From the NCBI GenBank assembly GCA_963663865.1, contig OY760686.1, positions 1,344,001 through 1,408,000 of the forward strand: DNA of 64,000 nt. Reading direction: 5' to 3'. Positions within the stretch are counted from its first letter, which is position 1; every line of letters starts with the position of its first letter. Made by a program: the position numbers and the translations under genes. Positions 50,741-54,281 of this stretch are shown piece by piece. The DNA is from Spirochaetota bacterium (GTDB lineage Bacteria; Spirochaetota; UBA4802; UBA5550). A model generated the notes under the pieces. The model was not told where the DNA came from. It saw only the letters and a program-made list of their open reading frames with translations, and did not search any database.

Positions 50741-51394
50741 TCAGAATTTTTTTGCCTCCCAAACACCTCTGTGACCGGTCTTCGAATAGCTCCCCTTGAT
50801 GATTTTGCCGCCTGCGCTGTATTTTCCATTGTAGTGCTGGACGAAGTAGGCCCCCGCGCCTGTTTTTCTAAGCTCCGCCGGCGTGCTGACTGATCTTTTG
50901 AAGTAGAGCGAGTTTCCTTTAATTGTTACGTTCTTGAGGTATTCGACCGCACCATGAGCCCAGTTCGGAAATTTGACAGCTCCGTAAATACGGCCGTTCT
51001 TTTCCCACAGGCTGAGCGTGCCTCTGTGGGCGGAGACATTGATGTGGTAATTCCCCAGATATTGCGGAGGCACAGAGGCCGCGTCCTCGTCCCCTTCATC
51101 GTCGATGTATTCAATAAAGCTGATATCCTCAAGCCCGATTGCCGAAAGCGAGTAGTCAATATCGTTCCGGGCAAGAAGTTCCTTTTTCGAATCATGGGAA
51201 GGATATGAACGTGTCATAATCACATAACCGCCCGCGAACACAAACCTGTTTGCGCGAAAAAACTCTCCGGACTGTGTTTTTACAATGGCGCTTCTTGATG
51301 GAGCAAATGATGCGATCAGCAGAAGTATCAGGATTGATAATGCTCCCGCGGCAAAGACCAGGGCTGTTCTTTTTAATGATATTTTATTTTCCAC
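50741..51394 (-). CDS. Hypothetical membrane-anchored protein
   Basis: N-terminal TM then beta-rich domain; overlaps the end of the upstream TPR gene. Confidence 0.65.
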   Translation of the reverse strand: MENKISLKRTALVFAAGALSILILLLIASFAPSRSAIVKTQSGEFFRANRFVFAGGYVIMTRSYPSHDSKKELLARNDIDYSLSAIGLEDISFIEYIDDEGDEDAASVPPQYLGNYHINVSAHRGTLSLWEKNGRIYGAVKFPNWAHGAVEYLKNVTIKGNSLYFKRSVSTPAELRKTGAGAYFVQHYNGKYSAGGKIIKGSYSKTGHRGVWEAKKF

Positions 51395-52328
51395 TTTTAC
51401 CGTCCGAAATATTCAGGGCCTTTACCGTGGTCAGCTCAGCCATATCGTGATTGCCGAGCTGACGGTATATTCCCGCAAGGTTTATGAGGTACTCGCTGTT
51501 ATCCGGTTCAATCTTAACCGCCTGCTTCATAAGGGCAAGAGATTTTCTGAGAAAATAAACTCTCTTTCCGGGAAGAGGTTTGTTTACGAGTATACTGGCC
51601 AGATGGAAATAGCCGGGCGCACATCCGGGTAGTGATTTGAGCAGTTTTTCGAGCGTCTCAACGGCGGCGGTAAAGTTATTTCCTGCCCTGTAAAGCGATG
51701 CGAGTGTTATGAAGGCCTCGTCGCAGACAGGACAGAGCTCGACCGCTCTTTGAAGCTCGACTTCCGCCTGCGCAAGTTTACCCTGCCTGAAGAGCTCAAG
51801 CCCTCTGTCAAGATGAGGCCTGTATTGTGCCTCAGTTGCAAGTCGTGCCCGCGAGATTGCTGAAAGGTAGCTCTCATGTTCCCCGCGGCGATAGTAGTGA
51901 CGCACGACTGCGGTCAGACCGGGAGCGTATCCAGCATCCAGAGAGAGGCATTTTTGCAGGCTGCTGAAAGCGGAGTTGACGTCGCCTAATCTTTCGAAGG
52001 TAACTGAGAGCTTATAGTGTGACTGCGCTGTGCTTTCATTCGAAGCCGCAGCATTGAGATACAGGGAGTGAGCTTCCTCAATCCTGCCCATTTTGAGGTA
52101 TACATCACCCAGCAGTTCTGAGGCTTCAGCTTTACCCGGTTCCTTTATCAGGGCCAGCCTCAGGCTTTCAACGGCAAAGCTGTACATCTCTGCTTTATAC
52201 TGTTTAGCACCTCGCCTCAGGTAGAAGTCTGAGCTTTCCTTCAGAAGCTCCTGTGAAACTATTTCTCCATCCGGAACAAGAAAAAATAAGATGAAGACGG
52301 TTATAAAAAATGAATTCCTTGTTGACAT
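51384..52328 (-). CDS. Exported TPR-repeat protein (likely start ATG 52328; track extension runs antisense through tRNA-Phe)
   Basis: Hydrophobic N-terminus FFITVFILFFLV, TPRs (LLGDVYLKMG, AFITLASLY, YLINLAGIY). Confidence 0.8.
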   Translation of the reverse strand: MSTRNSFFITVFILFFLVPDGEIVSQELLKESSDFYLRRGAKQYKAEMYSFAVESLRLALIKEPGKAEASELLGDVYLKMGRIEEAHSLYLNAAASNESTAQSHYKLSVTFERLGDVNSAFSSLQKCLSLDAGYAPGLTAVVRHYYRRGEHESYLSAISRARLATEAQYRPHLDRGLELFRQGKLAQAEVELQRAVELCPVCDEAFITLASLYRAGNNFTAAVETLEKLLKSLPGCAPGYFHLASILVNKPLPGKRVYFLRKSLALMKQAVKIEPDNSEYLINLAGIYRQLGNHDMAELTTVKALNISDGKSGK

Positions 52329-52349
52329 ATTCAACCTGTATATTATTTT
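52322..52349 (+). promoter_or_regulatory. Promoter of tRNA-Phe
   Basis: TTGACA-16 nt-TATTTT, 14 nt upstream of the tRNA. Confidence 0.5.
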
Positions 52350-52363
52350 CGTACTTGTTTGAT

Positions 52364-52436
<73 letters not shown>

Positions 52437-52453
52437 ATCTCTTTTTCCAACCT

Positions 52454-52655
52454 CATTTACCATTTACCATTTACCATTTACCATTTACCATTTACCATTT
52501 ACCATTTACCATTTACCATTTACCATTTACCATTTACCATTTACCATTTACCATTTACCATTTACCATTTACCATTTACCATTTACCATTTACCATTTAC
52601 CATTTACCATTTACCATTTACCATTTACCATTTACCATTTACCATTTACCATTTA
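52454..52655. repeat. Perfect heptanucleotide tandem repeat (CATTTAC)28 + CATTTA
   Basis: 202 nt of uninterrupted 7-bp units. Confidence 0.99.
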
Positions 52656-53009
52656 TCGGTTCTACCTCTAACTTCTCAAGTTTTTTATCATCTTGACAAA
52701 ATACCGTTCTGATATTTTCTGTAACTGTTGCTGTTTTGAAATATTGGCGCGCTTTTATGTTCAATGCCGGGCTTCGGTCTGTTCGATGCAGCATTTTTTC
52801 TGGAATGACGTTTCTTTTCATCAGGGATAAGGCCCGTGATGTCATAAGAGTAACGAAGGCCTGCTTTTTCCAAAGGCGAGGTGGACCGGGAATGATTCCC
52901 CGATCAGATGCAGAGACAGGGAAGTTTTATCGATAGTATTTTTGTAAGGAATTTCCCCGGTTTTCTTGATGAATTAATGAAATGAATAAATACAGTTTGG
53001 GGTACAGCT

Positions 53010-54281
53010 ATGATTGATCCAAAGATAATCCGTGAAGATATAGGACTTGTGAAGGATATCCTCGAAAGAAGGAACATGAGTTCTGCTGTCGATGTTGATG
53101 CGCTTGCCGCGCTTGATGAAGAGAGACGTTCTCTCATTCTTAAATCCGATGAGTATCGAGAGGTCAGAAATCGCCTTTCAAAGGAGATCGGCGCTATTAA
53201 GTCGAAAGGCGGCGATGCTTCAGCTATAATGGATGAGGTGCAGAAGGCTGCTGACGGCATAAAGTCATGCGAGTCGAGACTTGCGGAAATCGAGGGGGAT
53301 TTCAGCGAAATGCATCTCTCTGTTCCAAACATCCTTGATGCTTCAGTTCCCACAGGCAGGGATGACTCGGAAAACATAGTTGTGCGCGAGTGGGGAGAGA
53401 AGCCTTCTTTTAACTTCGACCCGAAGCCTCATTATGACCTTGGTACGGAGATGGGTATTCTGGACTTTGAAAGAGGCGTTAAGCTCGCGGGCGCAAGATT
53501 CTATGTCTACAGAGGGCTGGCGGCTCAACTTGAAAGGGCCATTCTTTCTTTCATGCTTGATCTGCATACCACTGAACACGGCTACACCGAGATTTTCGCA
53601 CCGTTCATTGTAAACGATGAGAGCATGACAGGAACGGGGCAGTATCCAAAGTTTAAAGATGAGTACTACAGGATGGACAGAGACGGTCTATCGCTGATTC
53701 CAACAGCAGAAGTGCCGTTAACAAATCTGTACCGGGATGAGATTATCGACGGCAAGGAGCTTCCAATATCGGTGACAATGCAGTCATCGTGCTTCAGGAG
53801 GGAGGCAGGCGCCGCGGGCCGCGACACAAGGGGCCTTGTCAGGGTGCATCAGTTCCAAAAAGTTGAACTTGTTAAATTTGTGGAGCCGGAAAACTCGTCT
53901 GAAGAGCTTGAACGTCTCACAGCTAACGCTGAAGAGGTTCTCAAGAGGCTGAAAATACATTACAGGGTTGTTCTGCTATGCAGCGGCGACACTTCGGCTT
54001 CTTCGTCCAAGACCTACGACATTGAGGTTTGGATGCCCGGGCTGAACCGCTACCTTGAGATATCATCCTGCTCTAACTTTCTTGACTATCAGGCCAGAAG
54101 AGCAAGAATACGCTATAAGAAAGACCAGGGGACAAAGCCGGCCTTTGTGCATACACTCAACGGTTCGGGCCTGGCTGCCGGCAGAACGCTTGCCGCGATA
54201 ATGGAGAACTATCAGACGGCTGAAGGCAACATAGCCATACCAGAGGTTCTTAAACCATACATGAAGGGATTAAAAGCCTGA
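53010..54281 (+). CDS. serS: Serine--tRNA ligase
   Basis: LIPTAEVPL, CFRREAG..DTRGLVRVHQFQKVE, EISSCSN, HTLNGSGLA. Confidence 0.98.
   Translation: MIDPKIIREDIGLVKDILERRNMSSAVDVDALAALDEERRSLILKSDEYREVRNRLSKEIGAIKSKGGDASAIMDEVQKAADGIKSCESRLAEIEGDFSEMHLSVPNILDASVPTGRDDSENIVVREWGEKPSFNFDPKPHYDLGTEMGILDFERGVKLAGARFYVYRGLAAQLERAILSFMLDLHTTEHGYTEIFAPFIVNDESMTGTGQYPKFKDEYYRMDRDGLSLIPTAEVPLTNLYRDEIIDGKELPISVTMQSSCFRREAGAAGRDTRGLVRVHQFQKVELVKFVEPENSSEELERLTANAEEVLKRLKIHYRVVLLCSGDTSASSSKTYDIEVWMPGLNRYLEISSCSNFLDYQARRARIRYKKDQGTKPAFVHTLNGSGLAAGRTLAAIMENYQTAEGNIAIPEVLKPYMKGLKA

Follow-up and report, generated by a model that had tools for sequence, protein, structure and literature searches.

A perfect heptanucleotide repeat array behind the tRNA-Phe gene of a Spirochaetota bacterium

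Gene neighbourhood and properties of the array

The window analysed here is a stretch of 64,000 nucleotides (positions 1,344,001 to 1,408,000 of the forward strand of contig OY760686.1) from a Spirochaetota genome that consists of a single contig of 3,156,400 bp; coordinates refer to the window unless the contig is named. On the minus strand, positions 51384-52328 hold a gene for a TPR-repeat protein, recognized from the list of open reading frames (ORFs) and by Pfam, in which the product matched TPR_2 with 73.2 bits and 23 further families of TPR type. Its likely start is the methionine of MSTRNSFF..., the mechanically defined ORF extending to 52463 by way of the tRNA antisense strand, and its relatives in metagenomes share only 22-40% identity with it. 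Divergently oriented, the gene for tRNA-Phe (GAA) was located by ARAGORN on the plus strand at 52363-52437 (Rfam RF00005, 72.5 bits, at 52364-52436), with CCA not encoded. A consensus scan places a promoter-like site of this tRNA gene, composed of TTGACA, a 16-nt spacer and TATTTT, at 52322-52349 of the plus strand; it is a consensus match only, with 10 of 12 positions in agreement, and ends 14 nt upstream of the tRNA. Behind the tRNA follows a short trailer, TCTCTTTTTCCAACCT (52438-52453, plus strand), with a run of five T that begins 5 nt past the tRNA end given by ARAGORN, and then, after a gap that measures 16-17 nt depending on whether the ARAGORN or the Rfam end is used, the perfect heptanucleotide array (CATTTAC)x28.9 at 52454-52655. 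Further downstream and co-oriented with tRNA-Phe, serS, identified from the ORF list and by tblastn, encodes a seryl-tRNA synthetase of 423 amino acids (53010-54281, plus strand). Downstream of the array, three small ORFs ahead of serS showed no Pfam match, and at E ≤ 1 the Rfam search around the array returned the tRNA, two chance eukaryotic matches and no other RNA.

TRF reported the array as one row (period 7, 100% matches, 0% indels, score 404, 202 bp), and direct reading of the sequence resolves it into 28 full units and a partial unit of 6 bases, so that the perfect 202-nt array behind tRNA-Phe announced in a preliminary description of this DNA is confirmed by both approaches. Its score is by far the highest in the window, where the runner-up row scores 88, and genome-wide it is the longest short-unit array, higher TRF scores being obtained only for periods of 60-423 nt. 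Head-to-tail copies of a short unit are present far beyond chance, as is characteristic of an SSR or VNTR. The cumulative GC skew of the genome has its minimum at about 0.35 Mb and its maximum at about 1.94 Mb; as the array, at 1.396 Mb, is remote from both extremes, a replication origin or terminus at this site was rejected.

The CATTTAC unit contains no G, and the plus strand of the array is therefore G-free with three C in every seven positions, corresponding to an RNA with 0% G and 43% C. In RNA folding, the array was predicted to be unpaired (MFE of -3.7 kcal/mol over 263 nt, with zero pairs within the array), the minus strand was likewise unpaired when folded as DNA, and the 593-nt spacer transcript folded worse than its shuffles (z +1.9) with the array unpaired in the centroid. 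The initial characterization of the transcript (CCAUUUA)n as G-free, C-rich and essentially unstructured is thus borne out by composition and folds, and translation reproduces the chain of MVNGKW mini-ORFs that had been pointed out on the minus strand. Stops interrupt all frames of that strand, dividing it into successive MVNGKW mini-frames, and the plus strand is open in all frames with a repeated HLPFTIY. As the sole long plus-strand frame across the array also spans the tRNA gene, it does not represent a gene, and the array encodes nothing.

Between the array and serS, the -35-like motif TCTTGACAAAA (52690-52700, plus strand; hexamer at 52693-52698) lies 38 nt past the array end and 317 nt ahead of the serS ATG, and it perfectly matches a motif that is kept upstream of serS in relatives. 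Among 12 relatives with the same gene order, TTGACA is found 54-126 nt before the serS ATG in 10, and the extended form CTTGACAAA in 7. From this conservation we infer that TCTTGACAAAA is a putative promoter element of serS. A degenerate second copy of the motif, TTCTTGATGAA (52966-52971, plus strand), is situated 44 nt before the ATG and is the weaker promoter candidate, as it would leave a leader of only about 10 nt. The array is hence located between the tRNA-Phe trailer and the probable serS promoter. Genome-wide, TTGACA and its extended forms are just 1.5-2.3 times enriched, which makes the serS motif a local conserved site and no special genome-wide signal. The distance of 317 nt between the distal motif and the ATG compares with 54-126 nt in the relatives, and serS may have an unusually long leader of about 280 nt here. 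This leader gave no Rfam match and is no more structured than its shuffles (z 0.06), and searching 63 family genomes with the spacer between tRNA-Phe and serS gave nothing beyond short matches of 20-47 nt, with an E-value of 1.7e-4 at best.

Repeats elsewhere in the genome, and the locus in other genomes

A genome-wide search for (CATTTAC)n, as the preliminary description had suggested, revealed a single locus, the one beside tRNA-Phe and serS: all 26 three-unit matches fell inside the array, no doublets were found elsewhere in the genome, and both flanks of the array were unique. A dispersed heptamer family or a mobile element was rejected on the grounds of the one tandem locus, the lack of doublets and the unique flanks.

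Genome-wide TRF analysis detected nine further perfect short repeats with a unit length not divisible by three, comprising AATCTGG (12.6 copies), TGAGACC (3.9 copies), GGTCTCATCG (3.8 copies) and GGAA (8 copies) at one locus each, the decamer TTCAAGCCCT at two loci (6.3 and 4.3 copies), and AG at three loci (14-15.5 copies). All nine are situated at the 5' end, within the first codons, of open frames; the frame was seen directly for eight of them (contig 288471-290426, 1178285-1180537, 1613130-1613564, 1694644-1695438, 2721043-2722662, 11990-13414, 2712919-2714406 and 2716520-2718457), and the ninth repeat, the decamer with 6.3 copies at contig 771612-771674, was assigned by means of the flanks that it shares with the 4.3-copy paralogue. 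When the eight frames were scanned with Pfam, two were without match and six were matched, namely two thermolysin-type M4 peptidases, two C10 peptidases, one protein with an I69 inhibitor domain and one SpvB/FG-GAP/TcdB-mid-N protein. Several of the repeats are followed by a hydrophobic, cysteine-containing stretch that by eye resembles a lipoprotein-type signal, and taken together the nine 5'-coding repeats resemble a complete set of slipped-strand switches for exported proteins. The two decamer paralogues (contig 770939-773872 and 1177621-1180531) are 98.5% identical over 2.9 kb and differ with 6.3 versus 4.3 copies, and this difference of two units between near-identical paralogues indicates that slippage is active in the lineage. 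In the paralogue with 4.3 copies, where the repeat begins just past the start codon, the ATG frame soon hits a stop, and this paralogue looks to be OFF. MutS (two matches) and MutL are encoded, and thus the array is no symptom of lost mismatch repair. Among the perfect non-triplet repeats of the genome, the CATTTAC array is the longest and the sole intergenic one.

Repeats with longer units were also noted. Three arrays of a 21/42-nt unit with a palindromic ACATAA...TTATGT-like core, in 4-11 copies (contig 1198897-1199117, 2926152-2926429 and 3009646-3009814), look like binding-site arrays, and a 60-nt unit is repeated 10.2 times with 91% identity at contig 1423222-1423839, just past the end of the window.

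For comparison of the locus in relatives, which had also been suggested, 18 stretches with tRNA-Phe from family and order genomes were inspected. Twelve of these show serS downstream of tRNA-Phe in the same orientation, the spacer between the two measuring 73-1208 nt, and in tblastn searches the serS product was 65-77% identical to those of the 12 relatives, all of which adjoin tRNA-Phe. None of the 12 syntenic spacers contains a tandem array above a TRF score of 32, the array thus being missing from all 12, and no match to (CATTTAC)x3 occurs in 121 other genomes of the order. Directly after tRNA-Phe, a run of at least five T within 15 nt is present in 6 of the 12 spacers, a hairpin terminator in 2 and neither of them in 4. 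The 27-nt right flank of the array had no exact match in metagenome contigs.

In other phyla the CATTTAC unit was encountered in at least 121 stretches, forming at least 132 arrays of at least 28 nt. Among the arrays listed, the median length is 33 nt and the maximum 84 nt, 116 of 132 measuring 28-40 nt, in a comparison that includes short-read MAGs incapable of holding a long array. Only one of the other-phyla loci listed has a tRNA within 400 nt, and among the matches listed 50 of 79 arrays (loci of at least 2 kb) lie inside open frames of at least 120 codons. The short arrays of other phyla are a different phenomenon from the array behind tRNA-Phe. Seven MAGs among the matches listed (Pyrinomonadaceae, Acidobacteria and Chitinophagales where titled) carry two oppositely oriented arrays of this unit, each about 30 nt long and separated by 10-20 nt; together they form an inverted pair built from repeats.

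Termination behind tRNA genes and the origin of the array

On the plus strand between tRNA-Phe and serS, a consensus scan found no site consisting of a hairpin and a T-run, in agreement with the reported absence of a terminator hairpin after the tRNA, although the run of five T is present. The further statement that a terminator would be expected at this place is weakened, as a strict scan detected a hairpin plus T-run after only 12 of the 32 unit-ending tRNA genes of the genome, and as in folding 12 of 30 trailers were weakly structured (weaker than -10 kcal/mol). Similarly, it is true that tRNA-Phe lacks an encoded CCA, but this is a genome-wide rule and nothing special: inspected by eye, no trailer of the 42 tRNA genes begins with CCA, and the repeated CCA of the array is therefore without demonstrated meaning. 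As a separate observation, the trailers of tRNA-Phe (52438-52453), tRNA-Trp (contig 2898778 onward) and tRNA-Gln (contig 614406 onward) begin alike, with a pyrimidine motif resembling (A)TCTCT(C)TTTCTTTC, which is possibly a shared processing or termination signal.

Rho is encoded in this genome by an open frame of 473 amino acids (PF07497, 121.9 bits). Rut sites have been reviewed as regions of low structure with more C than G and with an optimum of 60-90 nt (PMC12360218), and the array RNA, with its excess of C over G, its weak structure and a length beyond about 60-90 nt, has these properties, which makes loading of Rho on an array transcript plausible as judged from sequence. Besides the Phe trailer, C exceeds G in 9 of 11 weakly folding trailers, including all 9 with an MFE above -5 kcal/mol. 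However, this trend is unspecific because 12 of 18 strongly folding trailers share it and because selecting weak folders favours low G.

The array is a real and striking long heptanucleotide repeat of a known type in a curious placement. With a probability of about 0.6, we consider it to be a single-locus hypermutable heptanucleotide SSR (VNTR) that has grown by slippage in the spacer between tRNA-Phe and the serS promoter and is tolerated there as a Rho-compatible trailer. The recently expanded VNTR that the preliminary description had put forward survives in this interpretation, a perfect array being best read as a slippage repeat that was recently expanded or is continually homogenised; its copy number is taken from one assembly, and copy variation was seen only at the decamer paralogues. 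Slippage explains the array. The locus shows neither a hairpin nor a duplicated tRNA end, and features of a mobile element are likewise absent. Replication slippage would build the heptamer array in the non-coding spacer, where it is probably tolerated as a spot that needs merely an unstructured trailer with C above G. Readthrough RNA from tRNA-Phe would carry a G-free, C-rich and unpaired stretch of about 200 nt on which Rho could load, halting transcription ahead of the serS promoter, and 3' exonucleases would trim the trailer after the Rho stop. A change in copy number would have a small graded effect at most and would not act as an on/off switch. Three parts of this account are inferences: transcription of the array, its use by Rho, and a minor influence of its length. 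Much of the transcription may already end at the run of five T that begins 5 nt past the tRNA; T-runs are also found there in 6 of 12 relatives. The length of the array, 202 nt, far exceeds the 60-90 nt needed by a Rut site and therefore is not explained by a role as Rut.

Several other origins and roles were considered for this position. An integration scar at the 3' end of the tRNA gene finds no support, as the tRNA end is not duplicated and synteny is kept in 12 relatives, and an integrated element at tRNA-Phe was rejected since partial tRNA-Phe copies (att) are lacking in the genome, the ORFs of the spacer are without Pfam match and synteny is intact. A role in tuning the TPR gene, proposed at the outset, is unlikely because the whole tRNA gene separates it from the array. 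Neither position nor gene function assigns the array to the contingency loci or phase switches, given that no gene reads through it, that it ends 38 nt upstream of the -35-like motif, and that the genes around it are those of tRNA-Phe, a TPR protein and the seryl-tRNA synthetase.

The array might instead be a purely neutral product of slippage, with no effect on its neighbours and no role in termination. We regard this as a possible, if doubtful, explanation: the array is absent in all relatives examined, it occupies a single locus, and nothing is conserved inside it, just as the spacer to serS is unconserved in 63 family genomes. However, Rho would be likely to load on any transcript of the array because of its composition, whether or not the array was selected for this, and a perfect array of 202 bp has not been purged from a compact spacer beside two essential genes. 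Neutrality is hard to tell apart from the preferred reading of a tolerated Rho-compatible trailer. A stronger role would fall to the array as a rheostat of serS expression, with its length or its rotational phase (three units are 21 bp, about two helical turns) setting promoter strength in the manner of other repeats known from the vicinity of promoters. Only 38 nt separate the array from the -35-like motif that relatives share ahead of serS, this genome clearly employs repeats as switches at nine other genes, and for the heptamer upstream of hmw1A in Haemophilus influenzae expression is described as inverse to repeat length (PMC12721329); yet serS has a housekeeping function, while the other repeats belong to genes for secreted or surface products, and the array lies upstream of a putative promoter, outside the -35/-10 interval and the 5'-UTR. 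As, in addition, a long hairpin of the hmw type is absent (spacer RNA with z +1.9, array unpaired in the centroid) and the serS promoter is itself putative, such a rheostat appears rather unlikely. Less credence still is given to the array as a length-variable Rho-loading insulator, whose copy number would set how much of the strong transcription from tRNA-Phe enters the serS promoter and leader, with slippage tuning the synthetase gene; if it were true, this would be a contingency-type device on housekeeping translation genes that works by way of termination and not by frame or promoter spacing.

It is very improbable that the array or its copy number was created or inflated by assembly or polishing. 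The array is known from one assembly, and contigs of four public runs break inside the tRNA, none of them bridging the array, but the genome is one contig of 3.16 Mb, and the array is free of indels and mismatches and sits between clean, unique flanks. When the left part of the locus with 11 units was used as query, the run contigs of this organism ended inside the tRNA, at 52396 and 52399; these breaks are uninformative because a repeat of this kind would be expected to interrupt short-read contigs in any case, and since tRNA contigs of other organisms pile up at the locus, the depth summed over the bins of the array does not translate into a copy number. A binding array for a single-strand nucleic-acid-binding protein, one per heptamer (for example with a cold-shock domain), or a product of templated repeat addition is scarcely to be expected. 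CspB of Bacillus subtilis is reported to bind heptamer direct repeats with one protein per unit (cited in PMC4679880), and the CATTTAC array is T-rich and unstructured; however, this locus is the only one in the genome where the unit is repeated, so that there is no regulon, and slippage accounts for the array without extra machinery.

Even if it is only a product of slippage, the array offers a ready typing marker for the lineage and a warning for assemblers, as short-read contigs break there. It also indicates that the slippage behind the switches of protease and toxin-complex-like genes in this genome can build arrays of 200 bp beside essential genes. If either the reading that involves Rho or that of a serS rheostat were true, the array would provide a natural, perfectly regular and G-free Rut element of tunable length, useful as a model substrate, and a case in which variation driven by a repeat affects termination.

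Comparison with known repeats and tRNA trailers

Among long prokaryotic SSRs with units of 5-11 nt, heptamers are over-represented (survey of 2007, ref. 33 in PMC4692102). The array behind tRNA-Phe resembles the SSRs treated in this literature in being a perfect head-to-tail intergenic heptamer, for which polymerase slippage is the cause proposed there, and differs in being at the long end, with 29 copies, and in its location directly behind a tRNA gene, a placement not described in the available text of that source (PMC4692102). Intergenic heptamer arrays with up to 43 copies are reported (PMC4679880), including TAACTGA arrays in Beggiatoaceae, Cyanobacteria and Bacteroidetes (PMC4679880), and GGGAATC / GGGGA(C/T)T arrays are known from Xanthomonas and Nostoc (PMC4692102). 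The TAACTGA and GGGAATC families are, like the CATTTAC array, intergenic heptamer tandems with no predicted RNA structure, but they are described as dispersed, with tens to hundreds of loci in a genome and often a position immediately ahead of a start codon, whereas CATTTAC occupies one locus. With all 26 matches in one array, membership in families of the STRR, TAACTGA or GGGAATC type was rejected.

The repeat of hmw1A/hmw2A of H. influenzae is located in the 5'-UTR, where it pairs with a G-rich arm to form a long hairpin that is cut by RNase III, and controls a surface adhesin (PMC12721329). Common to this system, as described there, and the CATTTAC array are a heptanucleotide unit, tens of copies upstream of a gene and a pyrimidine-rich sense strand. 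In contrast, the CATTTAC array is placed upstream of a putative promoter, has no hairpin and neighbours a housekeeping synthetase, and when the spacer was folded, no hmw-like hairpin between the array and downstream RNA was obtained. No description of a long heptamer array immediately downstream of a tRNA gene in bacteria was found in a literature search, which is a weak negative.

Within the same genome, the nine 5'-coding switches are also perfect non-triplet repeats, two of them with heptamer units. However, they have 3.8-15.5 copies, occupy first codons and can shift reading frames, whereas the array has 28.9 copies, is intergenic and can shift none. Repeats near promoters and behind tRNA genes have precedents in nadA of Neisseria meningitidis, where a tetranucleotide tract upstream of the -35 element modulates the promoter, and in tyrT of E. 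coli, where tandem 178-bp repeats and a Rho-dependent terminator are found behind a tRNA gene; both differ from the CATTTAC array in unit size and organism.

With respect to termination, the valV-valW and leuQPV tRNA operons of E. coli are described as ending in unstructured, inferred Rho-dependent terminators that are removed by PNPase and RNase II (PMC2190699). The trailers of these E. coli operons are not tandem repeats, and dependence on Rho is putative at the locus studied here; like them, tRNA-Phe ends its unit without a hairpin terminator and with an unstructured trailer, in a genome that encodes Rho.
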